A program made the translations under genes and the position numbers. A stretch of DNA of 64,000 nt, from contig CAZMYL010000001.1 of NCBI GenBank assembly GCA_964570505.1, positions 143,501-207,500 on the forward strand, read 5' to 3'. This document shows, one piece after another, positions 20,580-64,000 of this stretch (within the stretch, counting starts at the first letter, position 1; each line of letters opens with the position of its first letter). This DNA comes from an uncultured Pseudomonadota bacterium (GTDB taxonomy: Bacteria > Babelota > Babeliae > Babelales > CAIQNR01). Below the pieces are notes generated by a model. That model did no database searches. It was not told where the DNA came from and saw only the letters and a list, made by a program, of their open reading frames with translations.

Positions 20580-20612
20580 TTGTTGAATAATACTAGTATA
20601 TATTTGATATTT

Positions 20613-21240: not shown

Positions 21241-21304
21241 ATTTTTATTTAAATGAGCAGAAAACCCCAAGTTTTTTTAAAACTGGGGATGAATGGTCAT
21301 CCTT

Positions 21305-21416
21305 ATTGGTTTGAAAGTAGTCAGCAAAACTTTTTTGAAAATCTTTTGCGTAAAGATTATAACCTTAAGAGCGTTCCGGTTAAGTTTAATTTACGTAGAA
21401 TGTTCTTTGATTAATT
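21305..21416 (+). pseudogene. orphan duplicate of the der 3' end (last 36 codons plus stop)
   Basis: The 112 bp align without gaps to der 20470-20581 (offset 835) with 4 mismatches. All four are synonymous in the der frame. No der body lies upstream. An ATG at 21289 creates a 41-codon relic ORF. Confidence 0.8.
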
Positions 21417-21441
21417 TTTAATATTTATATACTACTTACAA

Positions 21442-45369: not shown

Positions 45370-45394
45370 TATGTATAGAAAGATGGGGTTATCT

Positions 45395-46114
45395 ATGAAA
45401 AAATTTTTATTGTTATTATGCGTTTCGCTTTGCGCAACCCGTGTTTACTGTGCTCCCACTGATGATAAATATAGTTGGCTTACAAGGCTTGGTATGTTTT
45501 TAAGAAATAGTCCTCAGCAAATTTTGACACAGTTAAAACAAGAAAATTTGTATACTGATTTATGGCTAGAAGAATTACCTGCTCCAGAAGGTATCGTATA
45601 TAGAGTATATCGTATTATTAAGGTAAGTAATGAATTGTCGATAGCTTTTCATGTAGGAAATATATTTATTGGCGATGATGGTATTAGTGTTCGTACTGAG
45701 ACTTTTGGGGGACAAGTATTAGATCATGCTCAGCAAGCCGAAGTAGATTGTGAAACAATTATAAGGTGTATTGCATGGAATCGTCCTCCGCAGCAATTTA
45801 TTGAATTTTTGAGGAAAGTTTTTTCTAAAGAATTAGATAGTAAAACAATGACAGAGATTCAAAAGCAATTGTATAATATAAAAAACCCTGAGGAGAGCAA
45901 AGGATTTGTTTTTACGCAAAACAAAAGGTGTAACTCAATTATTGATGAAGAATTAGCTCAAGCTGCTCAATGTGGGCAACGGATGATGGTTAGAGTCGCT
46001 GCAAAGGCTGCAGCTCTTTATGGATTGTATTCTTTAAGAAATGAAATTGCTACAGGTGTTAAAAATGGTACTTCATCTCTTGTGGCTGCAGTTGCAAGTG
46101 GACTAGGTAAGTAA
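45395..46114 (+). CDS. secreted/tail-anchored paralogue 1 of a three-gene tandem family
   Basis: MKKFLLLLCVSLCATRVYCA signal peptide. The C-terminus ...AALYGLYSLRNEIATGVKNGTSSLVAAVASGLGK is shared with the next two genes, and the middle is divergent. The track start is 45371. Confidence 0.7.
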   Translation: MKKFLLLLCVSLCATRVYCAPTDDKYSWLTRLGMFLRNSPQQILTQLKQENLYTDLWLEELPAPEGIVYRVYRIIKVSNELSIAFHVGNIFIGDDGISVRTETFGGQVLDHAQQAEVDCETIIRCIAWNRPPQQFIEFLRKVFSKELDSKTMTEIQKQLYNIKNPEESKGFVFTQNKRCNSIIDEELAQAAQCGQRMMVRVAAKAAALYGLYSLRNEIATGVKNGTSSLVAAVASGLGK

Positions 46115-46139
46115 TGATATATGGCTTAAGAGGTTATCT

Positions 46140-46880
46140 GTGAAGAAATTTTTATTGTTAGTATGTATTTTTGTTTGTGCAACTCGTGTTTACTGTGCTG
46201 CCACTGATGATAAATATGGTTGGTTTACAAGGCTTGGTATGTACTTAACAAAGAGTCCTCAGCGAATTGCGAAAGAGTTAAGAAAACAACGTTTGTATAC
46301 TCATTTATTGATAAAAAAATCTTCCGAAAATTCTGAATATCCAAGAAAATCTAATGGTTATCATTTATATCATTTTTTTGAAAATAGTAATGTTGGTATA
46401 TCGAAAAGAATGATAGTTGAACAATATGGTACTGTTGATGTTGAAGAATCTTCTGGGTTCTATATCGTTAACCCTAAAGAATTTCAAGAAAATTCTAGCT
46501 TAATAATATCTACTATTGCGCTGTATTATCCTCAGAAATTTATTAGTTTTTTGAGAGAAGTTTTTTCTGAAAAAGATTCTACTTTAGACGACTTCTCTAA
46601 AAGCAACAGTTGGGCTGAAATCTGTCGGAAAAAGAAAATAGATACGCTTGATTATAGTGCACAGCAACAGATTATTAGTGAAAATAATAAAAAGTGTAAC
46701 TCAATTATTGATAAAGAATTGTCTCGAGCTACTCAATGTGGAGTTGCTGCAACGGTTGGAGTTGCTGCAGCGGGTGCAGCACTTTATGGATTGTATTTTT
46801 TAAGAAATGAAATTGCTACAGGTGTTAAAAATGGTACTTCATCTCTTGTGGCTGCAGTTGCAAGTGGACTAGGTAAGTAA
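46140..46880 (+). CDS. secreted/tail-anchored paralogue 2
   Basis: GTG start 6 nt after SD AAGAGG. MKKFLLLVCIFVCATRVYCA signal peptide and a Gly/Ala-rich hydrophobic C-terminal segment. Identical to paralogue 3. Confidence 0.7.
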   Translation: MKKFLLLVCIFVCATRVYCAATDDKYGWFTRLGMYLTKSPQRIAKELRKQRLYTHLLIKKSSENSEYPRKSNGYHLYHFFENSNVGISKRMIVEQYGTVDVEESSGFYIVNPKEFQENSSLIISTIALYYPQKFISFLREVFSEKDSTLDDFSKSNSWAEICRKKKIDTLDYSAQQQIISENNKKCNSIIDKELSRATQCGVAATVGVAAAGAALYGLYFLRNEIATGVKNGTSSLVAAVASGLGK

Positions 46881-46905
46881 TGATATATGGCTTAAGAGGT
46901 TATCT

Positions 46906-47646
46906 GTGAAGAAATTTTTATTGTTAGTATGTATTTTTGTTTGTGCAACTCGTGTTTACTGTGCTGCCACTGATGATAAATATGGTTGGTTTACAAGGCT
47001 TGGTATGTACTTAACAAAGAGTCCTCAGCGAATTGCGAAAGAGTTAAGAAAACAACGTTTGTATACTCATTTATTGATAAAAAAATCTTCCGAAAATTCT
47101 GAATATCCAAGAAAATCTAATGGTTATCATTTATATCATTTTTTTGAAAATAGTAATGTTGGTATATCGAAAAGAATGATAGTTGAACAATATGGTACTG
47201 TTGATGTTGAAGAATCTTCTGGGTTCTATATCGTTAACCCTAAAGAATTTCAAGAAAATTCTAGCTTAATAATATCTACTATTGCGCTGTATTATCCTCA
47301 GAAATTTATTAGTTTTTTGAGAGAAGTTTTTTCTGAAAAAGATTCTACTTTAGACGACTTCTCTAAAAGCAACAGTTGGGCTGAAATCTGTCGGAAAAAG
47401 AAAATAGATACGCTTGATTATAGTGCACAGCAACAGATTATTAGTGAAAATAATAAAAAGTGTAACTCAATTATTGATAAAGAATTGTCTCGAGCTACTC
47501 AATGTGGAGTTGCTGCAACGGTTGGAGTTGCTGCAGCGGGTGCAGCACTTTATGGATTGTATTTTTTAAGAAATGAAATTGCTACAGGTGTTAAAAATGG
47601 TACTTCATCTCTTGTGGCTGCAGTTGCAAGTGGACTAGGTAAGTAA
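46906..47646 (+). CDS. secreted/tail-anchored paralogue 3 (identical copy of paralogue 2)
   Basis: Identical 246-aa translation and, as far as I can read, identical nucleotides at a 766-nt offset. Confidence 0.7.
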   Translation: MKKFLLLVCIFVCATRVYCAATDDKYGWFTRLGMYLTKSPQRIAKELRKQRLYTHLLIKKSSENSEYPRKSNGYHLYHFFENSNVGISKRMIVEQYGTVDVEESSGFYIVNPKEFQENSSLIISTIALYYPQKFISFLREVFSEKDSTLDDFSKSNSWAEICRKKKIDTLDYSAQQQIISENNKKCNSIIDKELSRATQCGVAATVGVAAAGAALYGLYFLRNEIATGVKNGTSSLVAAVASGLGK

Positions 47647-49684: not shown

Positions 49685-50463
49685 TGATTCCTGTTTTGTT
49701 CCATATTTGGGGTCCTTTATCTATTCATACTTATGGCTTTATGATAGCCATTGCGGCTTCTGCAACACTTTATTTAATGCAAAAAGATATGAAATTAATG
49801 AAAGTTATTCATCATAAAAATATTTTTGATATTGCAAGTATCATTATTTTTGCGGCTATAATTGGTGGTCGTTTATTACATATTTTTGAATATCCAGAAA
49901 CTATTCATTCTTTTTTTGATTGCATTGATTTAACAAGCGCAGGATTTTCTTTGCTTGGAAGTATTATTGCAGGTACGGGGTCATTAATATTGTATGGTTA
50001 TATTCAAAAAATAAATATTATAAATATGCTCGATAGATTTAGTATCTATATGCCTTTGCTTTATGCAATTTCACGAATAGGATGTTTTTTTGCAGGATGT
50101 TGTTATGGCGTTGAGACTACATATTTTTGGTCAATTGTGTATACGAATCACAATGTTTTTGCGCCTTGTTTTATTCATTTACATCCAACTCAATTATATA
50201 GCGCTTTTTTGGGTTTTTTAATTTTTTTAATTATGTATTTTTTGGTTGATTTAGTTTTTAAAAAACCAGGGCAACTTGTTGGAAGTTATTTTTTATTAAT
50301 TGGAGTAGAGCGTTTTTTTGTTGATTTTTTTCGTGCAGAACGCGTTATGGTTAATGAATTCTTTTCGACATCTCAAATCATTTCGATATTATTTATGATA
50401 ATTGGGTTATCAATTTTTGGTGTAGTAACAATCTTTCCAAAGAAAAACAATGAATGTTTTTAA
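49684..50463 (+). CDS. lgt: prolipoprotein diacylglyceryl transferase
   Basis: GPLSIHTYGFMIAIA, RIGCFFAGCCYG and seven TM helices. The ATG overlaps the mnmG stop (TGATG). Confidence 0.85.
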   Translation: MIPVLFHIWGPLSIHTYGFMIAIAASATLYLMQKDMKLMKVIHHKNIFDIASIIIFAAIIGGRLLHIFEYPETIHSFFDCIDLTSAGFSLLGSIIAGTGSLILYGYIQKINIINMLDRFSIYMPLLYAISRIGCFFAGCCYGVETTYFWSIVYTNHNVFAPCFIHLHPTQLYSAFLGFLIFLIMYFLVDLVFKKPGQLVGSYFLLIGVERFFVDFFRAERVMVNEFFSTSQIISILFMIIGLSIFGVVTIFPKKNNECF

Positions 50464-52186
50464 TATTGTAAAAAGTAAAGTTCAAATTCTTGATATTATT
50501 GGTCAGCATGTTGTTTTAAAAAAAGCTGGGCATTATTGGAAAGGATCCTGTCCTTTTCATAGCGAAAAAACAGCATCGTTTAGTGTAAGTCCTCATAGAG
50601 AAATTTTTTATTGTTTTGGTTGTCAAGAAACAGGCGATGTTATTGCATTTATTAGTAAAATTGAACATTGTTCTCAAATAGAAGCTGTAAAATTTCTTGC
50701 AGAACGTTATGCAATTGAACTTCCAGATAATTTTTCAACAGAGACAGCAGAAAGCTTTGATGAAAAAAAACGTTATTTTTCATTATGTTCGCTTGTAGCC
50801 ACATGGTGTTATGAACGTTTGTTAGAAAATCCTCAGGTTATGGAATATGTTTTGCAGCGAGGTATTAATCATGATGAAATTAATATTTTTAAAATAGGTT
50901 ATTTTCCTTCTGGAACGCAATTTTTAAAGCATTTATTACAAGAATTGCGAAAAGAAAATTTTTTATTAAAGGATCTTATTGATGCTGGGATAGCAGGAGA
51001 AGGCAAAGCTATTTATTCATCATTTGAACAACGAATTATATTTCCTATACGCGATCATTTAGGACGTTATTGTGGATTTGGAGGTCGAATTTTTAAACCA
51101 TCTGATGAGCGGTCAAAGTATTATAATTCTCCTGAAAATAATTATTTTCAAAAAGGCTCTATTCTTTTTGGGCTAGATATTGCAAAACGAGATATTCAAA
51201 CAAAAGGAACAGTTTTTTTGGTGGAAGGTTATACTGATTGTATTGCAATGCATCAGCATGGGTATAAAAACACAGTAGCCACACTTGGAACGGCTTGTAC
51301 TGTTGAGCATCTTAAATTACTTTCACATCATGCGCATACTGTTTTGACTTTATATGATGGTGATAGTGCAGGTAGAAAAGCGATGCTAAGATTGGTTGAG
51401 CTTTGTTGGCAGGTTAATTTAGAATTAAAAGTCATTGTTTTGCCTAAAGATTCTGATCCTGCTTCTTTTTTAAAAACTGGTCAGTCATTAGAATTATTAA
51501 TTGCTCAGGCTCAGGATTTATTTGATTTTTTCTTAAGTGATTTGGGTAAAGATTATAAAAATGCACCTTTACAACAGAAGCTTATTTTAGCTAGAAATTT
51601 TTTAACTATTATAAAAAAACTGAATGATCCATTAAAGGAAAATATTTTACTTCAAAAAGCCTCTGAAATTTTTGGCATTCCTTTACATTCATTACAACAA
51701 GAGCTTAAGCAATCTTATAAAAAAGAAGCTTTGCCTGTATCATCAATTCCTGTTGTAGAGCATTATGAAATTTCTAACTTAGAAAAAAAATTTATATGTG
51801 CTATATTGTCTGATACGCAATTATTAAAAAAACACTCAGTAGTAAGAATTTTAAATTATTTGCCAGACGAGCTTAAAGTTTTGATAGAAAAGTTGATTAT
51901 TGCTCAAAATGAATCAGAGTCAGAAGTTTATTCAACCTTTTTTGAGACTCTTGATGAGCGTCAAAAAATATTGGTAAATCAAATGTTGATGACTGAATCT
52001 GAGATACAAGATGATTTTGAAAATATAGAAATGTTGTTGGAAAAAAAGTATTGGAAAATGATTGTTAATGATACAAAAGCACAGCTTAATGAAGCGCAAT
52101 TGCAAAATAACTTGCAAGCAGTGCAAGCAATTATTGGCTCTTTTTTGGATCTGAAAAAAAAATTATTACATAAGGGGCTTATATAA
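50450..52186 (+). CDS. dnaG: DNA primase
   Basis: Zn finger [15 protein letters not shown]...FYCFGC and a TOPRIM domain ([16 protein letters not shown]...[11 protein letters not shown]). Overlaps lgt by 14 nt. Confidence 0.9.
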
Positions 52187-54465
52187 TGGTTATTAAAAGC
52201 ATAATTAATAAAATTTTGGGAATTTCAAAAAAGAGTAATTCTAAAAAAGCAACAAAAAAAATAAAACAAATTAAAAAAATTAGTTCTAAAAAAAGTTCTT
52301 TAAAAACAAAAAAAATTGTTGTTAGAAAAAATAAAAAAACAGTTGATAAAACTGTAAAAAAAGTAACAGTTAAAAAAAATGTTGAGTTGAAAAGCTCTCA
52401 AAAAAAGGCAGGGTCTTTAAAGAAAAATATTTCAAAGCCTTCTGTTAAAGCGCCATCTCGTGTAGTAAAGACTACATTAGATGTTAAAAATTCTTTGATT
52501 AAAAATGAAGTAACTAAAACATCTCTTCAAGCAAAGCCAACAGCTTCTATTAAAAAAACAGTAAAATCAGTCACTTCTAAAAAAGTAGCGACTAAGGCAA
52601 AAGTAGCAGCGCCTGTAGTTTCTGTTAAAAAAGAATTAGATCTTAAAAAAGATTTGATGGATGCAATCTTAGAAAAAGGTAAAGAAACAGGTGTTTTAAC
52701 TTATGAAGAAATAATGGTTCTTCATGATAAAGCTCATCTTACCGAAAAAGAAGCTAATGATTTTATGAAGGTTCTTGAAAAAGAGCATATAGAATTAATT
52801 ATGGAAGAGGAGCTGTTAGCGCAAGATGCACTGGATGATCATAGTAAAGATGAAATTGGATCTCACGCGGAATTGAAGGATAAATTTGTTTCGAGTCTTT
52901 CTGTTGATGAAGACGGTGGTGATGAAGAAGATACAGATTCAGAAGATGACGAAGAAGAGATTGTTGAAAGAGCAGAAGTTTCTCATATTGCCGATGGTGT
53001 TAAATGTTATTTAAGAGATATTGGTAAAATTCCATTACTTAATAAAACAACAGAAAAAGTTATTTCAGATAAGATAGCAACAAGTAAAAATTCTTGTATT
53101 GAGGCTATTTCTCATTTTCCTTTTGTTTATAAAGAATTTTTATCTATTGGAGAGAAACTTCATAAAAATCCAATGATTCTTAAAGATGTGATTCAATTTG
53201 CTGAATATGATGAAGAAAATTTACCTAAAATTGGCGAAGAGCGTGATGCATTTTTAAAAACAATAACAGCACTTGAAGATTTAATTAAAAATGAAGAGCG
53301 CATTTATGCTTCGTATCGGAATCAATTAACATCTCAAGAAAAAAAACAAGAGATGTTAAGAAAAGTAAAAGAGAATAAAGAGGCAATTAGTGAAACTGTT
53401 CAGTCAATTAGAATAGCTAATAAATTTATTAGAAAAATTGGTAAAAAAATTGAAAAGCTTCTTTTGAAAATTCAAGAAAAACAGCAAATTATTCGTGATG
53501 GTCAAAAAACAATTGATTTTATAAAAAAAGGAAAAGACATTTCTTCGGATAATAAAATTTTGCTTGAAGAAACAGAAGTAGAAATAAGAATGGCTACTAA
53601 GTCTATTAAAAAAACGGAAAGTGAAGCAGGTCTTCCTCTTGATGTTATCACTAAGTACTACCGTCAGCTTGTAAAGAGCCAAAAAGATGACAAACATGCT
53701 AAAGATGAACTTGCTAAAGCAAATTTACGTTTGGTAGTGAATATTGCAAAGAAGTATGTTAATAGAGGTCTTCATTTCTTAGATCTTATTCAAGAAGGTA
53801 ATATTGGTCTTATGAAGGCTGTAGAAAAATTTGAATTTGAACGTGGATATAAATTTTCTACTTATGCAACATGGTGGATTAGACAGGCAATTACACGTGC
53901 AATAGCAGATCAGTCAAGAACTATTCGTGTTCCTGTTCATATGGTAGAAACACTTAATAAAATTAATAAAATTAAACGTCTTTTTATTCAGCAACATGGG
54001 CAAGAGCCTTCATATGCAGATTTAGCAAAAGAACTGAATCTTGATGAAAAGAAAGTTAAAAATATTATTAAAATTTCAAAAGAGCCTATTTCGCTTGAAA
54101 CACCAGTTGGCGATAGTGAAGATGCGTTTATTAAAGATTTCATAGAAAATGACAAAGATTTTTCTCCTGCTGAAACAGTAGCAAATTCTGATTTAAAAGA
54201 GCGTGTACGCGAAGTTCTTAAAACACTTGCTCCACGAGAAGAAAAAGTTCTTAAAATGAGATTTGGTATTGATGTTGCATCTGAACATACTTTGGAAGAA
54301 GTAGGAAAAGATTTTTCTGTGACTAGAGAACGTATACGACAAATTGAGGTAAAAGCATTGCGTAAATTACGTCATCCTTCTAGAAGTAAAAAATTACAAT
54401 CGTTTTTTGATAAAGAAATAAATGTGGATGAAAATGATGATATTACTAGTGAATCATTTGAATAA
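52186..54465 (+). CDS. rpoD: primary RNA polymerase sigma factor RpoD with a long Lys-rich N-terminal extension
   Basis: Region 2 reads [44 protein letters not shown]. Region 4.2 reads [29 protein letters not shown]. The start overlaps the dnaG stop (TAATG). Confidence 0.9.
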
Positions 54466-54489
54466 TTTGACGAAAGGCCTAAGGGGTAT

Positions 54490-55803
54490 ATGAGTTCGGA
54501 TATAACAAATTCGTTACTTTCAATGCAGCTTATTTATTTTTCGATAGCGCTTTTTTTCTGTGCATTATTTTCATTTTTAGAGACAGCAGTTACTGCACTG
54601 CGTCTTTTTAATTTAAACGAAATTGCAAAAAGCACGCGCGGTTATACTAATTTACTTACAGTTTTAGAAAAAGAACCTCAACGTGTTTTAATTTCTATTT
54701 TAATAGCAAATAGTATTGCAGATGTTACTTCTGCTGCTCTTATTACAAGAATGATGGAAGATTTTTTTAAATCTTTACAGCTTTCAGAAGGATTGGGATT
54801 TTCTTTAGGGATTGCAATTGCAACAGCAACAACGTTATTGGTTGGTGAAGTAATACCTAAAAATGTAGCACAAGCTCATGGTCCTCAACTTTTTAAATCA
54901 ACATTATGGCTTACTAATATTACATTTTATATTATGTCTCCATTAGTTAATATTCTTTCTAAAATTTCAAATTTTATTGTTTCTTTGGTTAAAAATAGTT
55001 CTGATCAAGAAGACAGTACTGAAACATATACATCAGAAAAAGAGATTCAATTTCTTATAGATTATATTAACAAAAAAGGAATGATGGATACTGATAAAAC
55101 ACAAATGTTACATAGTATTTTTGATCTTGGACATACAACTGTTAAAGAAATTATGGTGCCAGAAACGGATATTGTAACAGTAAATGTTTCATGTTCGTTG
55201 CAAGAAGCATTAGATCTTTTTTCTCGATACCATTTTTCTAGACTTCCTGTATATGAAGGTCAAAATGATAATATTATAGGAATGGTGCATCAAAAAGATG
55301 CATATTTAGTTTTACTAAAAAATGAGAAAAAAACATTGCAAGAACTTGTTCGTCCTATTTTATTTGTTCCAGAAAGCATGAAAGTTAATCAATTATTGCG
55401 CCAATTTAAACAACAGCGGCATCATATAGCGATGGTACTTAATGAATATGGTGGCATTATTGGTTTAGTAACACTTGAAGATGCTATAGAAGAGATTGTT
55501 GGAGAAATAAATGATGAACACGAGTCAGTTCCTGAAGCAATAGTTACATTAGAGCAAGGTGGATGGCTTGTTTCTGCAAGTGTAGACCTTGATGAACTTG
55601 AAAAACTTTTAAACGTTCGTTTTGAATGTGATGATGCTGTGACTTTGGGTGGATTTGTAAGTGAAAAATTGCAAAGACTACCAAAAAAAGGAGAACGTCT
55701 TTCTTATAAAGGATATGTTTTTCAAATTCAAAAATCATCAGAAAAACGTATATTTCAGGTTCTAATTTTTAAAGATAATATACCGGATTCTTTTATTATG
55801 TAA
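54490..55803 (+). CDS. CNNM/DUF21 membrane protein with a CBS pair and CorC_HlyC domain (hemolysin-family / Mg/Co efflux-like)
   Basis: Four N-terminal TM helices (DUF21), a CBS pair region (TVKEIMVPETDIV...RLPVYEG...IGMVHQKD) and a C-terminal CorC/HlyC domain. Confidence 0.8.
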   Translation: MSSDITNSLLSMQLIYFSIALFFCALFSFLETAVTALRLFNLNEIAKSTRGYTNLLTVLEKEPQRVLISILIANSIADVTSAALITRMMEDFFKSLQLSEGLGFSLGIAIATATTLLVGEVIPKNVAQAHGPQLFKSTLWLTNITFYIMSPLVNILSKISNFIVSLVKNSSDQEDSTETYTSEKEIQFLIDYINKKGMMDTDKTQMLHSIFDLGHTTVKEIMVPETDIVTVNVSCSLQEALDLFSRYHFSRLPVYEGQNDNIIGMVHQKDAYLVLLKNEKKTLQELVRPILFVPESMKVNQLLRQFKQQRHHIAMVLNEYGGIIGLVTLEDAIEEIVGEINDEHESVPEAIVTLEQGGWLVSASVDLDELEKLLNVRFECDDAVTLGGFVSEKLQRLPKKGERLSYKGYVFQIQKSSEKRIFQVLIFKDNIPDSFIM

Positions 55804-55878
55804 TTATGAATTTGTATGTTCTTATGTGCATTTTGTGATGCAGGATAGTCACTTATTGTCGCTAAAGGATATATAATC

Positions 55879-56289
55879 ATGCCTTATAAAAGAATAATAT
55901 TAATCATGTTGTGTGTTTTTATTCATAGTGAAATACTAACTAATCAAGTTAATATTTCACATCAAAATGAATCTAATAATGCTGGAAAATTAGTTTCATA
56001 TTTTTTAAGAGATATCTTAGGTGGGATTGTTGGCCTTAAAGCAAATCAGGGAAATTCTCAAGAAGCATCAGCATCATTAAAACAGGTCTTAAATGGCATG
56101 GCTGGTTTAGTAGAGACAGTTCTTGAAGAAAATAAAGTACGTGGAGTTTCAATATCATCAGAAGATATTGAAACTATAATGTTATATTTAAAAAATATAA
56201 TCAAATATTCTCTTGATACAGAACAAGGTCAAAAAGCATTAGAGGTATTGCTTAAAGACTTAAATTTATTAAAAAAAGAAAATAAATAG
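55879..56289 (+). CDS. hypothetical exported protein, 136 aa
   Basis: Signal-like MPYKRIILIMLCVFIHSEI. No family recognised. Confidence 0.5.
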   Translation: MPYKRIILIMLCVFIHSEILTNQVNISHQNESNNAGKLVSYFLRDILGGIVGLKANQGNSQEASASLKQVLNGMAGLVETVLEENKVRGVSISSEDIETIMLYLKNIIKYSLDTEQGQKALEVLLKDLNLLKKENK

Positions 56290-56420
56290 TTCAATTAAAA
56301 TTATTATATTATCGGATCTATCCTGCATCTTTTATTGTAATAATAATATTTTTTCATTTACACTACTTTTTACGCAGTGTGTTAATTGAATCATTATTTA
56401 TTATAAAAAAAGGAGTAGCA

Positions 56421-56477
56421 ATGAATATGTTTTTAAAATTCATATTATTATGCGTTATAATTTTTCCTCAATTATAG
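56421..56477 (+). CDS. possible 18-aa hydrophobic mini-ORF
   Basis: SD AGGAG lies 5 nt before the ATG. The product is MNMFLKFILLCVIIFPQL*. Not in the ORF track. It could be a relic signal-peptide fragment. Confidence 0.2.
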   Translation: MNMFLKFILLCVIIFPQL

Positions 56478-56483
56478 AATATC

Positions 56484-57833
56484 TTATGGGAAGCAATATT
56501 CTTGCACAACAACCATTTCATAAGGTTCTAATCCAACAGAAACAATTGCTATAGGAACTCCTGCAAGACACTCAAGTTGTTTTAAAAAAATGCGAGCTTC
56601 TTGCGGTAGTTCACTAAAAGTCCGTGCATTTCGAGTCGATTTTTTCCATCCAGGAAAAACAATATAATGAGGCACAACTCGTTTTTGATCTTCAAGTGCT
56701 GGTGCAGGGTAATCAAGATGTCTTCCGTCAAGGTCGTAATCGATGCACATTTTTATTTCATCAAGATCATCAAGTAAATGTAAACCATTAAATGCTATAC
56801 AATCGGCTCCGTTTATCATAACTGCTTGACGTATCATAACAAGATCAATCCATCCGTATTGATGTTTTGGATTGTATATTTTTCCAAATTTTGTTTTTAC
56901 CATATTTGAAACTTCGGGGTCTTCTATTGCAGTAATAATTTTTTCAGTTCCTGGGTAAATACTATAAGAATCTACAATTGCTATAACAGTTTTGATTCGT
57001 TTAAATCCAACACCTGCAGAGCTACAAATGCTTGAAGCAAGAGCACTTACTCCTGAAGTATAAGAGCATGTTCCATGAGTACTATCAAGATAAGTACCAT
57101 AAGGACTATCAAAAAGACCTATTTTGCCATGGCTTAACATTTGATTAAATTTAAGCTCAATTCCATCACGAACATAAGGTTTTAGTATTTTTCTGTATTT
57201 AGTAAATGTATTATAAACTTCTTTAAAATCTATTGGCTTGTTTTCATAGAGTTTAATAATGATATCATTTCCTCTTTGAACATTTTCTTTAAGAAGGTCC
57301 TTATAACCGGCGCTCATTAAATCTGCTATTCTAAAGGCAACACCCATACATTTATCTGATCCTGCAGCGCCAACACCTACGCGTACACCAGATCCGATTC
57401 GACATGTTTTTTTCTTACGACTATAGTGTCCAATGCTTTTTTGATAAGGCATTAAAATTTGTGCGCTTGCAGATATTCGAATTCTTTTTTTTGTATCAAT
57501 TCCGAGCTTTTCAAGATCTTCAAGTTCCTTAATAAGTAAATCAGGATCAATAAGTGTTCCTGGAGCAATGTATACTTTAATTGCAGGCGATTGTAAAATT
57601 CCAACAGGGATATGATAAAAATTGTAAGAAACACCATCAACAGTTGCTTTGTGAGGATTTGTATAAGGAGCTTTTGTTTGGACTAAAAAATCAGATTTTC
57701 TTGCAAGATAATCTAAAATAACGGTTTGATAGTCATTGGTCCAACCTGTACCAATTGCAACCATACCATACGCTCTTTTTGAGTTAACATTACAAAATAA
57801 AAGTGCAACTACTATAATAGTAAATTTTTTCAT
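56484..57833 (-). CDS. exported adenylosuccinate synthetase (PurA)-like protein with degenerate catalytic motifs
   Basis: SD AAGGAG lies 7 nt before the ATG at 57833. Signal-like MKKFTIIVVALLFCNVNSKRAYG. The protein is collinear with PurA over its full length (IPVGIL, LDSTHGTCSYTSG, YGWIDLVMIRQAV, FPGW, VSVG). The P-loop, GGHNAGHT, GTTGRGIGP, TTGRRRR and (N/T)KLD motifs are all replaced. The track ORF extends to 57893. Confidence 0.7.
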   Translation of the reverse strand: MKKFTIIVVALLFCNVNSKRAYGMVAIGTGWTNDYQTVILDYLARKSDFLVQTKAPYTNPHKATVDGVSYNFYHIPVGILQSPAIKVYIAPGTLIDPDLLIKELEDLEKLGIDTKKRIRISASAQILMPYQKSIGHYSRKKKTCRIGSGVRVGVGAAGSDKCMGVAFRIADLMSAGYKDLLKENVQRGNDIIIKLYENKPIDFKEVYNTFTKYRKILKPYVRDGIELKFNQMLSHGKIGLFDSPYGTYLDSTHGTCSYTSGVSALASSICSSAGVGFKRIKTVIAIVDSYSIYPGTEKIITAIEDPEVSNMVKTKFGKIYNPKHQYGWIDLVMIRQAVMINGADCIAFNGLHLLDDLDEIKMCIDYDLDGRHLDYPAPALEDQKRVVPHYIVFPGWKKSTRNARTFSELPQEARIFLKQLECLAGVPIAIVSVGLEPYEMVVVQEYCFP

Positions 57834-57916
57834 AATCTTCTCCTTACTATAAGGACGGTAGTCTGCCTTAAAAGTAATAATCTGTAAACCCATCTATTTA
57901 TTGTTTGATAGGCTTG

Positions 57917-57959
57917 TTAAAATTAATTTAAAAATTTTTGACTTTTAAATTAATTTTAA
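57917..57959. repeat. perfect 17-bp-arm A/T palindrome in a divergent intergenic region
   Basis: TTAAAATTAATTTAAAA ATTTTTGAC TTTTAAATTAATTTTAA, located about 85 nt upstream of the PurA-like gene start. Confidence 0.6.
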
Positions 57960-58139
57960 CAGTTCAAAAAAGATGGTAATTAGTGGTTTGAAAAAAGAAT
58001 ATTTTCATGGATCAATACATTTAGAATGATTTTTGTTTGTTGTCAGAAGTTGTCAATCCATATACATGCATTTATTCAAATGATTTTTAAGATCATTATT
58101 TTTAATGAGTGCTTTTAGATAGGTTCTAAATAAATTTGA

Positions 58140-58220
58140 TGATGAGTATCAAATTGTTGGCACTACAAAAGCCTATTTTAGTGAGAAAGAGATTTTGCAG
58201 TCATTTGTAAAATAATTAAG
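58140..58220 (+). pseudogene. orphan perfect copy of the murE 3' end (last 24 codons, stop and 5 nt)
   Basis: 81/81 identity with 63362-63442 (offset 5222). An in-frame TAG lies upstream at 58120-58122 and there is no start codon, so it is not expressed as murE. Confidence 0.85.
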
Positions 58221-58359
58221 CTCATTTTTTTAAAAATCATAATAAATTTGGCTTAATCGAATTCTTTGATGCCCTTTTTGGTTTTTGTAAAATTGACTAT
58301 TTTTTAAATTTATATATTCTAATTGAATAATTTAATATAAAAAAATAGAGGTTATAATT

Positions 58360-59901
58360 ATGTTATTTAAGAAATTTTTTTTATTATTTTCTATTTGTGG
58401 TAATTATAAAGATCCTGTAAAAAGTGAACCTTTAGAATGTTCTGAAAACAGTAAAACTTCTGATTCTCCTTATTTAAGACGTATTCCAAGAGATCCTATT
58501 ACATATTTTCAATTCAAATTTGCAACAGAAAACGAAAAGGCTATAAATTATGAGAGAAGTTTAAAAAAATCAGTCGTTCCTGGCTATGATTTTACTGACT
58601 TATATGTAAAAAAAGAAAAAGAATTTATAGAAAATGATGGTGGTATTTATGCTTCTGCATTTTGTCAATTATTGATAAGCCGATCTGTTTCTGTTACGGG
58701 AAAAAGTCAATTACATAATATAGTAAGCCCAGTAAATGTTTATACATTTAAAAACAGGCCTGATACTCGAGCTTGTGCATATTTTCATACAATATGGTTT
58801 AAGGAATCTAGTTTGAAAAGAACATCTTTGTCTGAAAATTGTTTTACAGCATTGCATGAACTTCATCATATTATACACGGTGATTATAGAAGTAACAAAA
58901 GCATGTATAATCATTTTAATGATAGGTTTTCTACAGAGGAATCATATTCAAAATATATAGAATATAGTGCTGATGTAGGCGCTTTAGAGTATATGGGTTC
59001 AGCTGCAGCTATTAATGAAGTAGCTGAAAAATGTCCTGATGATTATAATTCAAGTAATGGTTATTTAAATAAAAAACAATATATGGAATTTGCTAAAGAA
59101 GCGCGAAAACAAGAAGATCAGTTTAAAGCTAATTTTTCCTATAATGATATGATTTTGCAACAAAAAGAATTTACACAAGATGATTTAAATCAATTTAAAT
59201 TTAACAATACAACTAAAAAAGAGTTGCTCCAAGATCAAGAAGAACATGCAGCGTATATGAAAAACTTGTCTTCTGATAATGATAATAATAATGAATTTCA
59301 AGCAGTTAATGATCGTAAAATGACGATGCTTTTAGCAATCCAAAAAAAATTACATATTGAAATTCAATTATTTGATATTGATGAAGAAAATAATGATCTG
59401 AAAAACAAGCTTTATATAAAATTATTGCATATTCATTCTATGCTAGAAGAGTCGGGATATATTAATCAAAAAGTGTATTCTGATGAATTTTATTATAATG
59501 GTCCTTCTTATATTGATAAAGAAAATAATGATCTGAAAAACAAGCTTTATATAAAATTATTGCATGTTAACTCTATGCTAGAAGAACATGCGTATATTAA
59601 TGCAAGAGTGCATTCGGATCAATTTCAGTATCAATATCCTTCTGATGTTAATGCTGAAGAGCTTAAAAAAAGATCATTTAATGATTTAAAAGGCAACCAA
59701 GATAAAAGTGAGCGATGGTTATTATCTAATTTATTTGCAGCATTGCAATATAATAATTTAGATAAATTAGAAGTTGATCTTAATTGGGTTGATCTAGAAA
59801 TAACAAAAGCTAATTTAGAACGTAATCAAGAAGAAGTTGAAAGACTTAAATGTATTAAAGCAAATTATGAAGAGCAGATTGAGAGTCTAAAAGGTAGTTA
59901 A
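58360..59901 (+). CDS. hypothetical HExxH-motif protein (putative zinc metalloprotease) with a coiled-coil/repeat C-terminal half
   Basis: 513 aa with a hydrophobic N-terminus MLFKKFFLLFSICG. ALHELHHIIHGD contains HExxH. There is a 45-aa internal tandem repeat, and the C-terminus is rich in E/K/N/L heptads. Confidence 0.65.
   Translation: MLFKKFFLLFSICGNYKDPVKSEPLECSENSKTSDSPYLRRIPRDPITYFQFKFATENEKAINYERSLKKSVVPGYDFTDLYVKKEKEFIENDGGIYASAFCQLLISRSVSVTGKSQLHNIVSPVNVYTFKNRPDTRACAYFHTIWFKESSLKRTSLSENCFTALHELHHIIHGDYRSNKSMYNHFNDRFSTEESYSKYIEYSADVGALEYMGSAAAINEVAEKCPDDYNSSNGYLNKKQYMEFAKEARKQEDQFKANFSYNDMILQQKEFTQDDLNQFKFNNTTKKELLQDQEEHAAYMKNLSSDNDNNNEFQAVNDRKMTMLLAIQKKLHIEIQLFDIDEENNDLKNKLYIKLLHIHSMLEESGYINQKVYSDEFYYNGPSYIDKENNDLKNKLYIKLLHVNSMLEEHAYINARVHSDQFQYQYPSDVNAEELKKRSFNDLKGNQDKSERWLLSNLFAALQYNNLDKLEVDLNWVDLEITKANLERNQEEVERLKCIKANYEEQIESLKGS
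59386..59655 (+). repeat. internal tandem repeat, 2 x 135 nt, within the HExxH gene
   Basis: ENNDLKNKLYIKLLH(I/V)(H/N)SMLEE... occurs twice. The first 45 nt of each unit are identical (GAAAATAATGATCTGAAAAACAAGCTTTATATAAAATTATTGCAT). Confidence 0.8.
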
Positions 59902-59905
59902 ATTT

Positions 59906-59982
59906 TGGTGTGCCCAACAGGAATTGAACCTGTGGCCTACAGATTAGGAATCTGTCGCTCTATCCAACTGAGCTATGGGCAC
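59906..59982 (-). tRNA. tRNA-Arg (anticodon CCT), CCA encoded
   Basis: Hand-folded: acceptor GTGCCCA/TGGGCAC, D arm GCTC-AGTTGGATA-GAGC, anticodon stem ACAGA/TCTGT with loop TTCCTAA, T arm ACAGG-TTCAATT-CCTGT, and 3' ACCA. Confidence 0.9.
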
Positions 59983-60053
59983 ATTTTAATGAGATTAGTT
60001 TTTTTAAATAGAACCCTTACATAATAACAAAAGATGTGAAAAAAAATAGGTAT

Positions 60054-60479
60054 TTAATCTTCATACTCTGTGGTGTTGTTTAAATTGTTTTGAAATTGTA
60101 ATCGCATTAAATATCCTTCTAAGATAAGTGCTGCAGCTTTTGAATGAATTTCTAACTTTTCACCTTTTTTTCCTAAATTTTGGGCTTGCTTACTAGTAAG
60201 CCGTTCGTCATAAAATTCCCATTTTTGATTTGGAAATTGTAATGATAGTTCTTCTTTAAGAAGAACTATTTTTTTTGTTTGTTCGCTTTCAGTTCCTCGA
60301 AGTGTTTGTGGATATCCTACAACAACTATTGAAATTGATTCGTGTAAAAACAATTCTTTTAAAAAATCTTGTAATTGGTTAAGAGGTACAGTTTTAAAAG
60401 GTCTGGCAAGTATTCTTGATGCATCGGTAATTGCGGTTCCTACCCATTGGTCACCAAGATCTAAAGCTATAATTTTCAT
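60054..60479 (-). CDS. ruvX: Holliday-junction-resolvase-like pre-16S rRNA nuclease RuvX (YqgF)
   Basis: MKIIALDLGDQWVGTAITD is the YqgF N-terminal signature. Size is 141 aa. Confidence 0.85.
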   Translation of the reverse strand: MKIIALDLGDQWVGTAITDASRILARPFKTVPLNQLQDFLKELFLHESISIVVVGYPQTLRGTESEQTKKIVLLKEELSLQFPNQKWEFYDERLTSKQAQNLGKKGEKLEIHSKAAALILEGYLMRLQFQNNLNNTTEYED

Positions 60480-60625
60480 TACATTTCCTTATTTAATAAG
60501 AGCTTATTTTTTCTATTATATGGCTTTATTATATCAAAATTCTGAAGACATTCATAAAAGAGTCTTGTATACTCGCTTTTTAAATAATAGTTAGTGCGTT
60601 TAATCTTCTACGAAAGGAAACTACT

Positions 60626-61999
60626 ATGATCGCTGATTTGATCTATAAGTTTCAGCACGCTGTTCATGCAGTTAAAGATGTTATATGGAGTTTGCCGTTT
60701 ATAATTTTTTTTGTTGCGGTTGCTTGTATTATTACAATTGCATTACGTTTTATTCAATTTAGAACTTTTGTAAAAAGCTGTCAGCTTGTTTTTTTTCCTG
60801 AAAAATCAACAGGTTCAAAATCAGGAGATATGTCATCTTTTCAAGCATTTTTAAATACTTTAAGTGTTAGTATAGGTAATGGATGTCTTTCTGGTACAGC
60901 CGTAGCTCTTTTTGCAGGAGGACCTGGCGTTGCTTTTTGGATGTTTGTAGTGGGATTGCTTTGTATGGCAATTAGATTTGCAGAGGTTTTTTTAGCAGTT
61001 TCTTTTGGTTTGGAAAATAAAGATAAAAATAAATTAGGCGGACCATTTCTTTATATAGAAAAACTACCAGGTGGAATGATTTTAACTTATTTATATGGTA
61101 TTGCATGTTTGTTTTTTAGTTTAACAGGTGGTAATGCTATGCAATGCAATACTATTAGTACTTCATTTAACAAGATGATTCCTTCTAATTGGTATTTGTA
61201 TGATGACATTTCTATAGTTAAATTAATGTTAGGTTTAATTTTAGCATCTTTTTCGATGTACATTCTAATTGGTGGAACAAAACGAATAGTAAAAGTTATA
61301 GAAAAGGTTGTTCCTCTTAAAGTAGGTCTTTTCTTTTTTACTATTTTGATAGTCCTTGCTTATTATTGGTCTCATATTCCTGCAGCCATTGCTCTTATTA
61401 TGGATAATGCATTTACTCCTCAAGCAATGGGTGGTGCTGCAATGGGGTTAACACTTCAGCAAGTTTTTTATCATGCAGCATATGCTACAGTTAATGCTAG
61501 TGAGGCTGGTCTTGGAACAGCTTCTGTGTTGTATGGAAGTACAGGGTCAAAAGAACCTATTAATGATGCATCTTCAAGTATGTTAAGTACATTTATTAGT
61601 AACAATATTGCAATGACTATGGTGGCAATTGCTTTGATTGCAAGTGGCGCTTGGATGTCTGGTGAAACTGGGGCTCCAATGGTTATTGAAGCATATCAAT
61701 CTGTTTTTGGTTATTATGGTGGATGGATTTTAACTGGATTAACTTTACCATTTGGTATTGGTGTTATTGTTCCTTATTGTTACATTGGGTATCAATCGTG
61801 GACTTATGTAACTGGTGGTAGAGCTATGGGATTATTCCCAATAATTTTTGTAGCAGTTTCATTTTTAGGGGCTATAGCTGATATTAGTGAGTTATGGACA
61901 TTAATTAGTATAGTGATTGCAGCCCTTTTAATAGTAAACTTGCTTGCTATGCTCTATTTTATACCTTATATGCGTAAACATGTTTTGAAAAAACAATAA
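60626..61999 (+). CDS. agcS: alanine/glycine:cation symporter (AGCS family)
   Basis: 457 aa polytopic protein. SFQAFLNTLSVSIGNGCLSGTAVALFAGGPGVAFWMF matches the AGCS signature region. Confidence 0.75.
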   Translation: MIADLIYKFQHAVHAVKDVIWSLPFIIFFVAVACIITIALRFIQFRTFVKSCQLVFFPEKSTGSKSGDMSSFQAFLNTLSVSIGNGCLSGTAVALFAGGPGVAFWMFVVGLLCMAIRFAEVFLAVSFGLENKDKNKLGGPFLYIEKLPGGMILTYLYGIACLFFSLTGGNAMQCNTISTSFNKMIPSNWYLYDDISIVKLMLGLILASFSMYILIGGTKRIVKVIEKVVPLKVGLFFFTILIVLAYYWSHIPAAIALIMDNAFTPQAMGGAAMGLTLQQVFYHAAYATVNASEAGLGTASVLYGSTGSKEPINDASSSMLSTFISNNIAMTMVAIALIASGAWMSGETGAPMVIEAYQSVFGYYGGWILTGLTLPFGIGVIVPYCYIGYQSWTYVTGGRAMGLFPIIFVAVSFLGAIADISELWTLISIVIAALLIVNLLAMLYFIPYMRKHVLKKQ

Positions 62000-62009
62000 A
62001 TTATAATTT

Positions 62010-63437
62010 ATGAAACTATCTCAAAAAATAAGCATGCCTGTTACTTTTCCTGTAGCAGCTCATACAGATAATGTTGGTCAAGGAACAATATTTGTTGCAA
62101 TTTCTGGCCAGCATTATGATGGAATTTTGTATATTCCACAAGCTATAGCAAAGGGTGCTTCTCGTATAATTATTCAACAAAATGCAGTTGTTCCAGAAGA
62201 TATTTTATTATTGCTTACTATGCATGAAATTCCACTTACTCGAGTGGATAATCCTCGCAAGGCATTGGCAGAATTAAGTAATCAAATGGCAGATTATCCT
62301 TCAAAGCAATTGAAAATTATTGGAATTACTGGAACTAAAGGAAAAACAACATCTGTTTATATTTTAGAAGCTCTTTTAAAGAGAATGGGTAAAAAAGTTG
62401 CTCGATTAAGCACTGTTTCTAATGCAATTGATGGTTATGAATTAACTGCTCCGCTTACGACTGCTCAACCAGATTATTTACATCAATTTTTTAGATTATG
62501 TCTTGATCAAAGCATTGAATATGTAGTTATGGAAATTGCAGCTCAAGCTACAACTTTTAATAGAATTGATGATATTCAATTAGACGCTCTTATTTTTACT
62601 AATTTAGAAAGAGAACATGCCGAATTGTATCCTGATATAGAGGATTATTTTCAAGCAAAATATAAAATTATAGATCATGTAAAAAGTGATGGATATGTGA
62701 TTGTTAATGCGGATGATATGTACGGGCAACGCATTTTAAAACAAAATAACTGTGCACGGGCATTTTCTTTTAAAGATGGAAATTCTGTTTATAGTTATGT
62801 TCAATACAGTCAAGAAAAAATAAAAATAATGATTAATGAATATGAATATGTTCTTAATTATAAGGGAATTCCTGGTATTTTTAATGCATATAATTTAGCA
62901 GGGGCTTTTATTGTTTTATTTTATTTAGGTATCTCTTTAGATCAATTGCTAGATGGGATTATTGAGTTTCCAAAAATACCAGGCCGATTAGAAGAGTATG
63001 CATTGCCTAATGGTGCGTGTGCTTATATTGATTATGCTCATACGGCAGGATCATTTAAAAGTTTGTTGTCTGTTGTACGTCAATGGACTGACCATTTGAT
63101 TGTTGTATTTGGTGCAGGTGGTGGTAAAGATTCTATAAAGCGTCCAGAAATGGGAAGAATTGCATCTGAATATAGTGACCTTATTATTCTTACAACTGAT
63201 AATCCTCGACAAGAAGATCCAAAAAAAATAATTGAAGATATTATGGTAGGAATTTTTGAAAAAGATAAAGTATTGGTTGAGCTTGATAGATCTAGAGCTA
63301 TACAAATGGCTTATAATTATTCAAAAAAAAGTTCTATTATTATGCTTCTTGGAAAAGGTCCTGATGAGTATCAAATTGTTGGCACTACAAAAGCCTATTT
63401 TAGTGAGAAAGAGATTTTGCAGTCATTTGTAAAATAA
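62010..63437 (+). CDS. murE: UDP-N-acetylmuramoyl-L-alanyl-D-glutamate--2,6-diaminopimelate ligase
   Basis: Mur ligase P-loop GITGTKGKTT and the DAP-specific DNPR motif in TTDNPRQEDP. 475 aa. Confidence 0.9.
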   Translation: MKLSQKISMPVTFPVAAHTDNVGQGTIFVAISGQHYDGILYIPQAIAKGASRIIIQQNAVVPEDILLLLTMHEIPLTRVDNPRKALAELSNQMADYPSKQLKIIGITGTKGKTTSVYILEALLKRMGKKVARLSTVSNAIDGYELTAPLTTAQPDYLHQFFRLCLDQSIEYVVMEIAAQATTFNRIDDIQLDALIFTNLEREHAELYPDIEDYFQAKYKIIDHVKSDGYVIVNADDMYGQRILKQNNCARAFSFKDGNSVYSYVQYSQEKIKIMINEYEYVLNYKGIPGIFNAYNLAGAFIVLFYLGISLDQLLDGIIEFPKIPGRLEEYALPNGACAYIDYAHTAGSFKSLLSVVRQWTDHLIVVFGAGGGKDSIKRPEMGRIASEYSDLIILTTDNPRQEDPKKIIEDIMVGIFEKDKVLVELDRSRAIQMAYNYSKKSSIIMLLGKGPDEYQIVGTTKAYFSEKEILQSFVK

Positions 63438-63512
63438 TTAAGAGCTTATCTAAAAACTAAATGTTCTTGAGAATAATGATCTGGAAGAACATTTGAACAA
63501 ATAATTGTATAT

Positions 63513-63575
63513 GACTTAAATGTATTAAAGCGAATTATCCAAAACAAATTAAAAATTTAAAGGGTAATGAATTTT
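63513..63575 (+). pseudogene. decayed relic of the 3' end of an HExxH-gene paralogue
   Basis: Collinear, at the same 3670-nt offset as the tRNAs, with 59843-59905. The first 26 nt match 25/26, and overall 49/63. Most differences are G to A in the relic. Confidence 0.6.
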
Positions 63576-63652
63576 TGGTGTGCCCGATAGGAATTGAACC
63601 TATGACCTACGGATTAGAAGTCCGTCGCTCTATCCAACTGAGCTACGGGCAC
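63576..63652 (-). tRNA. tRNA-Arg (anticodon TCT), CCA encoded
   Basis: Hand-folded: acceptor GTGCCCG/CGGGCAC, anticodon stem ACGGA/TCCGT with loop CTTCTAA, T arm ATAGG-TTCAATT-CCTAT. It is a paralogue of the tRNA at 59906-59982, with compensatory stem changes. Confidence 0.9.
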
Positions 63653-63716
63653 ATTTTAATGCATTAAGTTATAATTTAACTTAATAAGAATAAGTATAAG
63701 CTTTTTATAGATATTT

Positions 63717-64000
63717 TCAAATTATCCACTTTTTTCCATCAGGTAATACAAATAATGTTTTAAATTCTTGAAGTATTCGTTTAAGTTCTTCGTGTGTTTC
63801 TTGAGAAATATCTTTAGTTTCAGCAATTGTGTTGTAGAGTTTTGAATATACGGATTCAATATAACTTACAAATTGCATAACAAATGTATGAATATAAGCA
63901 GTCTCTACATCATTAATTTCATTATCTTGCAATACAAAAAGCATTAAAGCTTCTTCTATTAAAGAATAGGTCATATATTGAGATTGTTTAAGTATTTCTA
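63717..64000 (-). CDS. atpA: C-terminal part of F-type ATP synthase alpha subunit (ORF continues beyond the window)
   Basis: The minus frame is open to the window edge. ...EILKQSQYMTYSLIEEALMLFVLQDNEINDV...FVSYIES...ETHEELKRILQEFKTLF follows the conserved AtpA C-terminal pattern (ELLKQxQYxPxxxEEQVxxxxA...). The ATG at 63974 is internal. Confidence 0.6.
   Translation of the reverse strand, partial: EILKQSQYMTYSLIEEALMLFVLQDNEINDVETAYIHTFVMQFVSYIESVYSKLYNTIAETKDISQETHEELKRILQEFKTLFVLPDGKKWII

Follow-up and report, generated by a model that had tools for sequence, protein, structure and literature searches.

We describe a rearrangement in a 64-kb stretch of DNA (hereafter the window), which is part of a metagenome-assembled contig of 229.5 kb with a G+C content of 30%. 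In this stretch a gene for an orphan protein of 513 amino acids, here called X, lies to the left of a block made up of tRNA-Arg(CCT), ruvX, agcS and murE, and fragments of murE and of X are found in duplicate at the borders of the exchanged segments. In our view, the most probable interpretation of the data is that X was exchanged with the tRNA(CCT)-ruvX-agcS-murE block in the lineage of the window and that the duplicated fragments are the scar of this rearrangement, not a working device or a new system. Such a swap is a block interchange by duplication and loss, that is, a new and well-resolved instance of a known process. The collinear layout on which this is built (murE 3' end, X, tRNA-CCT, ruvX, agcS, murE, relic of X, tRNA-TCT) had been noted in an earlier sequence-only reading of the window and is real.

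Relatives were found by scanning species-representative genomes for MurE. They belong to the Babeliales (Dependentiae); the closest of them, L001, has a MurE which is 81% identical to that of the window, while the MurE of L002 is 74% identical. Further relatives, namely L005 (MurE 74%) and L006-L008 (69%), were obtained through protein searches. The collections of proteins, genomes and metagenomes yielded nothing nearer than L001, the metagenomes being scanned with alignments of X and MurE, and exact-protein look-ups with MurE and X did not find another assembly of the organism. The gene order in L001 is dnaG, rpoD, a corC-like gene, a small open reading frame (ORF), purA (minus strand), tRNA(CCT) (minus), ruvX (minus), agcS, murE, an ORF of 545 amino acids, tRNA(TCT) (minus) and atpA (minus). 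The 545-aa ORF is a full-length ortholog of X (62% identity) and is placed between murE and tRNA(TCT). Comparison of the window with L001 by blastn gave the following matching blocks.

Window 50086-57899, L001 1-7823: left flank through purA
Window 58140-58296, L001 11353-11506: murE tail and spacer (90.5% identity)
Window 58342-59987, L001 11499-13237: X running into the tRNA
Window 59906-63442, L001 7889-11433: tRNA(CCT) to murE (collinear, 85% identity)
Window 63514-64000, L001 13097-13579: X end, tRNA(TCT) and atpA

The strands of all blocks are unchanged, and the block order is A-X-B-C in the window compared with A-B-X-C in L001, B being the block from tRNA(CCT) to murE. Because the blocks are collinear but swapped, the order in the window is that of L001 with X and the tRNA(CCT)-to-murE block exchanged. 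The stretches common to two blocks are the 81-nt murE tail, exactly, and the X end of roughly 63 nt; in a self-blast of L001 neither the 81-nt nor the X-end repeat was present. The scars are thus found in the window and not in L001, which indicates that the L001 order is ancestral. The tRNA(CCT)-ruvX-agcS-murE block is also present in L002 and L005-L008, and these outgroups are without X. The features of the window that are discussed below are as follows; the purA-like gene of the left flank is supported by Pfam.

58059-58126, plus strand: D', native spacer upstream of purA, aligning to the end of the L001 purA-tRNA(CCT) spacer
58126-58139, plus strand: q, short spacer at the left junction (from the junction sequence)
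58140-58220, plus strand: orphan murE tail, the last 76 nt of murE and 5 nt, 81/81 identical to 63362-63442
58221-58359, plus strand: ancestral murE-X spacer, aligned to L001 11434-11516
58360-59901, plus strand: X, 513-aa orphan protein, with a full-length ortholog (62%) in L001
59843-59905, plus strand: X 3' end (last 59 nt including the stop codon, and 4 nt), the part duplicated as the relic
59906-59982, minus strand: tRNA-Arg(CCT) (ARAGORN, Rfam)
60054-60479, minus strand: ruvX (Pfam)
60626-61999, plus strand: agcS, Na/Ala symporter (Pfam)
62010-63437, plus strand: murE, with Mur ligase domains (Pfam)
63362-63442, plus strand: functional murE tail and 5 nt, the second copy of the repeat (sequence comparison)
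63443-63512, plus strand: D, 70-nt filler, inverted copy of 58059-58126
63513-63575, plus strand: relic of the original X 3' end beside tRNA(TCT), collinear with the X end and tRNA(TCT) of L001
63576-63652, minus strand: tRNA-Arg(TCT), in its ancestral position beside atpA (ARAGORN, Rfam)

The relic matches the X end at 49/63 positions, ungapped and in register with the tRNA ends (binomial P of 2e-15 for a background match rate of 0.29). This bears out the earlier description of a 78%-identical relic, together with the proposal that one copy of X was lost and left its remains beside tRNA(TCT). The G-to-A bias that had been ascribed to the relic stands only in part. Seven of the 14 differences do have G in X and A in the relic, but when these are polarised by L001 only four are G-to-A changes in the relic, while three are A-to-G changes in the live X. 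Comparison of the three X ends over 60 sites gave ten relic-specific changes, four X-specific changes and three changes on the L001 or stem branch. By comparison with L001, the decayed copy is the original X beside tRNA(TCT), and the surviving gene is the relocated copy.

The X protein has a HELHHIIHGD motif and a hydrophobic N-terminus with a conserved Cys. Among 5.8 billion protein clusters it has two members only, the window's own protein and the L001 ortholog. The match to Peptidase_M78 in Pfam is sub-threshold (E = 0.0065), NCBIfam gave no match, and a profile search of the PDB returned only noise; the AlphaFold model has a mean pLDDT of 32.7 and is unusable. An internal tandem repeat of 135 bp (59375-59644, two copies 83% identical) encodes ...ENNDLKNKLYIKLLH..., and its presence in L001 as well indicates that it predates the split. 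When X (58360-59901) is compared with L001 11517-13154, the window has G or C where L001 has A or T 118 times and the reverse is seen 87 times. The flanking blocks are symmetric in this respect, and the relocated X segment is slightly GC-enriched.

The two copies of the murE tail are, as had been reported, 81/81 identical by alignment at an offset of 5222, and outside both ends the similarity is at background straight away. The orphan copy was said to have no start codon, and we agree that the murE frame offers no usable start: there is an in-frame TAG at 58120-58122, followed by no ATG, GTG or TTG until a TTG six codons before the stop. The orphan tail agrees with that of the L001 murE at 77/81 positions. 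L001 also has murE tail, spacer and X start in one unbroken stretch, as seen at 58140-58296 of the window. The arrangement of murE tail, spacer and X is thus the ancestral murE-X junction, and the orphan tail was carried along with X. Older homology hidden to the left of the repeat edge was considered and rejected: the 17/32 matches found there fall mostly on D', which itself has an ortholog in L001.

Within the spacer (58221-58359) the first 45 nt are almost unchanged from L001 (about 97%), and an insert of about 55 nt is specific to the window. A hairpin with a T-run at 58250-58287 has the appearance in folds of a fossil murE terminator that moved with X, and it is clearer in L001. Taken together, the orphan tail and the first 45 nt of spacer form an element (58140-58265) which is wholly non-coding in the window and yet 118/126 identical to L001; among 126-nt windows taken from coding-rich blocks it ranks within the top 8%, whereas spacers average 78% identity. 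On visual reading, a conserved -10-like CATAAT is located inside the element at 58238-58243, with the hairpin and T-run and then X following it. The element could serve X as a conserved leader or regulatory sequence. The murE-tail/spacer element had no Rfam family match and its fold was not significant, and promoter and terminator scans gave background level only.

The junction to the right of murE is occupied by the filler D, which stands in place of the spacer and about 1.56 kb of X and had not been noted in the earlier reading. Its template is D', which lies just left of the orphan murE tail and was the 3' flank of tRNA-Arg(CCT) in the ancestor. D and the reverse complement of D' are identical at 50/66 aligned positions (76% overall), with a core of 37/47. 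D' is also the best match of D in the whole window, with a score of 26 compared with best scores for shuffled D of 17.5 on average (standard deviation 1.3, maximum 21), so that the match is about 6.5 standard deviations above the shuffles. D and D' share states that are absent from L001. A fold of D gives a hairpin with an 11-bp stem (63458-63495), which is now found right after murE. The possibility that part of the filler (63467-63513) is a second relic of X was raised by an ENNDL-like stretch matching the internal repeat at 16/18 positions. This reading was dropped, since by our own estimate about 0.2 chance matches of this kind are to be expected in the space searched and the inverted copy of the purA spacer accounts for all 70 nt.

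At the left junction, CTAAATAAATTT (58126-58137) forms an imperfect inverted match, 9/12, with the last 12 nt of the 81-bp repeat. The junction sequences compared here are TTTGA/TGATGAG and GGTCC/TGATGAG, with TGA/TGATG across the left junction. Both of the putative switch-point sequences, i.e. the 9/12 quasi-palindrome at the murE end and q and the TGATG at the left junction, have since diverged and lie in an AT-rich context. A wider inverted homology running into the 81-bp repeat, seen with blastn, was rejected as not significant (self-reverse-complement score of 15 versus 12.6, standard deviation 2.8). Further to the left, at 57915-57961, the spacer upstream of purA contains a perfect inverted repeat whose 19-nt arms enclose a 9-nt loop (TGTTAAAATTAATTTAAAA ... 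TTTTAAATTAATTTTAACA). This spacer has 246 nt in the window and 132 nt in L001, from which the 19-nt-stem hairpin is absent.

The duplicated pieces differ markedly in divergence: 22% for the X end and its relic (14/63), 24% for D and D' (16/66) and 0/81 for the murE tail. For comparison, seven orthologous spacers are 22% diverged between the window and L001 (449/574 identical). The branch lengths of 10, 4 and 3 obtained from the X ends indicate that the relic split off near the time at which the window and L001 separated, within a wide range of roughly 0.3-1.1 of the window/L001 divergence time when the comparison of D, D' and L001 is included (our own count). A neutral 81-nt copy evolving at the rate of the relic (0.167 per site) would be expected to carry about 13 changes, and the probability of finding it 81/81 identical is about 4e-7. 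The remnants are therefore not of one age and a further process is required. The earlier suggestion that the 81-bp repeat is younger, or is kept by conversion, is a fair reading of the contrast with the other duplicated pieces. The zero divergence of this repeat is the only unexplained element of the scar.

Indirect hints of gene conversion come from the tail itself. The paralogous tails are closer to each other (81/81) than either is to L001 (77/81), and, judged by the outgroups, at least two of the four differences from L001 (GAG and GGC) are derived states, which both copies carry. In addition, all four differences have G or C in the window and A or T in L001, a class which makes up 33% of the differences in the rest of murE (P about 0.011). 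This GC-ward pattern is what GC-biased gene conversion would give and, together with the mosaic paralogs described below, would hint at conversion in this lineage. If the rearrangement is real, we infer, with a modest lean in its favour, that conversion acting on two slowly evolving copies keeps the tail identical. It is possible, but appreciably less likely, that a long duplicate of the housekeeping block was homogenized by conversion and trimmed to 81 bp only recently. On the same premise, selection alone is an unlikely cause of the 81/81 identity, and an artefact or some other cause is unlikely to the same degree.

The strongest competing explanation for the perfect repeat dispenses with conversion and attributes the identity of the copies to purifying selection alone, which would act on MurE coding sequence in one and on part of a cis-element needed by X in the other. 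The spacer speaks for it, in that its well conserved first 45 nt are single-copy and so beyond the reach of conversion; their conservation must be selection on something upstream of X. The conservation of the 126-nt element as a whole, with its CATAAT and with the hairpin and T-run before X, points the same way. However, under selection alone 1.5-6 differences would still be expected, giving a probability of zero differences of roughly 0.002-0.2 depending on age, and the derived GAG and GGC changes common to both copies are left unaccounted for. The lack of an Rfam match and of a significant fold also tells against a cis-element, and we consider this explanation improbable.

Assembly artefact is a still weaker contender. 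The sequence might contain a metagenome mis-join or a collapse of two slightly different copies, and in an assembly graph the integrated form looks the same as a chromosome with the deletion accompanied by a 5.2-kb circle. On the other hand, no mis-join could produce diverged sequence such as that of the relic, the inverted filler and the four novel junctions, and all segments fit into a linear path in one way only, flank-repeat-loop-repeat-flank. A perfect 766-bp tandem duplication is also resolved in this contig, which suggests that repeats were handled properly. We therefore regard an artefact as very unlikely.

The two tRNA-Arg genes were the starting point of a different proposal. Both are called by ARAGORN and Rfam on the minus strand and directly abut the X end and the relic, and the compensatory stem substitutions reported between them are confirmed. 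The CCT and TCT paralogs are 68/77 identical, with six of the nine differences forming three compensatory pairs (acceptor 7:66, one anticodon-stem pair and one T-stem pair) and the others located at position 32, position 34 and one base of the variable loop. From this arrangement it had been proposed that an old unit of X plus tRNA-Arg was duplicated, that one anticodon then changed (CCT/TCT) and that one X copy was lost. The homology does cover 158 nt (83%), from the X end across the tRNA to about 18 nt past it, and both the compensatory changes between the paralogs and the 9 nt upstream that are identical in the two genes, CATTAAAAT, would suit such a history. The comparison with orthologs argues otherwise. 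The tRNA(CCT) of the window is 77/77 identical to the tRNA(CCT) of L001 and of L002, and its tRNA(TCT) is 77/77 identical to that of L001, so that each matches its same-anticodon ortholog perfectly while the paralogs share only 68/77 positions. Moreover, tRNA(CCT) adjoins ruvX-agcS-murE in every outgroup examined, all of them without X, and in L001 it has no X-like flank; on visual reading, the upstream flank of tRNA(CCT) in the window aligns about as well to the L001 tRNA(CCT) flank. The ortholog identities and the CCT block in outgroups without X refute a duplication of X plus tRNA with anticodon change, to which we leave a very slight probability, and the conserved block also indicates that both tRNAs long predate the event. 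The two tRNAs served as the recombination site of the event and are not its product.

The right junction is consistent with this role. At both tRNAs the X end runs into TGGTGTGCCC, the 10 nt common to the two tRNA 3' ends, after which the next base differs. Since the CCT gene has none of the TCT-type positions among the nine, any crossover must lie inside those 10 nt; a hybrid tRNA formed by crossover within the tRNA body was rejected on the same count (0/9). The X-end flank homology at both tRNAs would be there because the 3' end of X was copied up against tRNA(CCT). The identical 9 nt upstream are found at 59983-59991 and 63653-63661 (given above in the tRNA sense), and the L001 sequences differ there; they may be a promoter or a processing signal common to the two genes, or else a short patch of conversion. 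Least credible of all is site-specific integration of a mobile element in the murE 3' end, with the 81-bp repeats as attL and attR: a perfect direct repeat derived from the 3' end of a gene is the hallmark of att sites and X is an orphan gene, but the orphan tail is on the upstream side of murE, 5.2 kb from the functional tail, where a downstream position would be expected, the intervening 5.1 kb consists of X and the housekeeping tRNA(CCT), ruvX, agcS and most of murE with no integrase or recombinase, and L001 has X without any repeat.

What the data show directly are the repeats, the difference in synteny, the match of each tRNA to its ortholog, the inverted filler and the divergence values; the sequence of events, the recombination mechanisms and the cause of the perfect repeat are reconstruction. 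For the exchange of X with the tRNA(CCT)-to-murE block, we infer the following order of steps. First, the segment from 76 nt before the murE stop codon through the end of X would have been duplicated to the 3' side of tRNA(CCT), with its right junction within the 10 nt common to both tRNA-Arg 3' ends and its left junction at a short TGATG/TGGTG microhomology. Two variants of this step fit equally well. In one, unequal crossing-over between tRNA(TCT) and tRNA(CCT) would have given a tandem duplication of about 5.3 kb, from which the first copy of tRNA-ruvX-agcS-murE would later have been deleted between TGGTG at the tRNA end and TGATG at the start of the retained tail. In the other, a one-step copy-paste by template switching would have moved 1,766 bp (58140-59905), entering at TGATG, returning at TGGTGTGCCC and landing exactly at the 3' end of tRNA(CCT). 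Secondly, a deletion of about 1.6 kb would have destroyed the original X between murE and tRNA(TCT), and template switching would have closed the gap with D, the 70-nt piece of purA spacer in inverted orientation; of X, only the final 63 nt would have been left to decay. Thirdly, the tail before the relocated X would have been held identical to murE, most likely by gene conversion between slow-evolving copies, one constrained as MurE coding sequence and the other lying within the conserved 126-nt element upstream of X. Alternatively, a longer conversion-homogenized duplicate would have been trimmed only recently.

Several points weigh against this account. The polarity rests on one close relative (L001) and the internal scars, no intermediate state has been seen, and the source is a metagenome-assembled contig. 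The duplicated pieces are of unequal age, so that a single-event model fails without an added homogenizing process, and conversion as that process has to be reconciled with the fact that the 63-nt X end, although contiguous with an 88%-identical tRNA, and the 70-nt D and D' were not homogenized. At the left junction, the L001 spacer is not alignable at q, and microhomology calls at junctions that are 22% diverged are weak.

Gene-order change by tandem duplication and random loss (TDRL) has been described mainly for animal mitochondrial genomes (PMC3283314), and the crossing-over variant above follows this scheme. As in TDRL, adjacent blocks have been exchanged here, remnants are found at the predicted places (murE tail ahead of X, X end behind murE) and tRNAs are at the boundaries. 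The present case differs in that it concerns a bacterial chromosome, in that the remnants are 0% and 22% diverged and in that one loss junction carries an inverted templated insertion. A full-duplication intermediate was not seen in the relatives, of which L001 is the nearest. In bacteria, unequal homologous recombination between dispersed paralogous rRNA or tRNA genes gives rise to duplications. The right junction resembles such events because it falls in sequence common to same-strand tRNA-Arg paralogs that were about 5.3 kb apart ancestrally, but a crossover would be limited to 10 identical nt at the tRNA 3' end. This is below the homology usually thought to be needed for RecA-type recombination, and microhomology or template switching therefore fits equally well.

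Replication template switches at quasi-palindromes and microhomology-mediated complex rearrangements offer a second comparison (PMC7202029, PMC6357072). The deletion junction filled by a short inverted copy of nearby sequence is in keeping with these, and a 9/12 imperfect inverted match lies at the putative switch point. In contrast to classical quasi-palindrome events, the template is about 5 kb away in the present order and the junctions are blurred by about 24% divergence. Duplicated bacterial sequences can also evolve in concert by gene conversion. The murE tails show the features of concerted evolution, i.e. paralogs that are identical while 5% from the ortholog, shared derived substitutions and GC-ward changes at 4/4 differences; unlike typical cases, the repeat is only 81 bp, one copy is non-coding and the neighbouring repeats of 63-70 nt were not homogenized. 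Finally, tRNA remolding consists of duplication followed by anticodon change (PMC4783518). Two tRNAs of an isoacceptor family with similar flanks, close together, recall this process, but its defining feature, closeness to the paralog in the same genome, is absent (68/77 compared with 77/77 to the ortholog).

Other duplications are found elsewhere in the window. The last 110 nt of der (engA, 19254-20579) and 5 nt following it (20470-20584) are repeated 835 bp downstream at 21305-21419 with 111/115 identity. The copies flank an orphan ORF of 144 amino acids with a signal peptide, on the minus strand at 20665-21099. All four differences are at synonymous third positions, and the orphan copy retains the base of the outgroup L020 at three of these. 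The homology runs on through the terminator hairpin at about 73% with indels, and the orphan tail lies inside a possible 42-aa ORF starting from the ATG at 21289. In L020-L022 the insertion is absent, and an 81-aa ORF and a Na/H antiporter come straight after der; the window has about 4 kb extra here. The der tail thus looks like a second gene-tail fragment that is preserved far better than its surroundings. At 45371-47646 there are three tandem paralogs of a signal-peptide protein of 246/247 amino acids with no Pfam match. Two of the units (46111-46876 and 46877-47642) are 100% identical and form a perfect 766-bp tandem duplication. The third paralog, upstream, is a mosaic: its identity is 100% over the last 75 nt or so, 34-57% in the middle and 82-92% towards the 5' end. 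The pattern points to recent duplication, gene conversion or both. The der tail, the 766-bp duplication and the mosaic paralog together indicate that duplication, and probably conversion, has been active in this lineage.

It is conceivable, though we think it quite unlikely, that the orphan 3' tails of the housekeeping genes murE (before X) and der (after the 144-aa secreted-protein gene, at 20.4-21.4 kb) are kept near-identical on purpose in this lineage, as cis-regulatory leaders or as recombination handles. If this were true, the tails might be leaders captured with lineage-specific genes for secreted proteins, or handles for reversible amplification or excision of the intervening segment; the earlier reading had likewise suggested that the 81-bp repeats may mediate deletion or amplification.

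The practical consequences of these observations are small, as they concern one locus of an uncultured organism and no phenotype is linked to it. Their interest is that they provide a clean, base-resolved case of gene-order change in a reduced intracellular bacterium, with a junction in paralogous tRNAs, duplication and subsequent loss, and one deletion patched by an inverted templated insertion. They also correct a tempting but wrong inference of tRNA anticodon evolution. What they leave as a puzzle is a non-coding fragment of 81 nt that has remained unchanged while the neighbouring duplicated DNA diverged by about 22%. The murE and der tails suggest that conversion with the functional parent gene, or selection linked to it, can carry short gene fragments along, and such preservation matters wherever the identity of repeats is used to date duplications.

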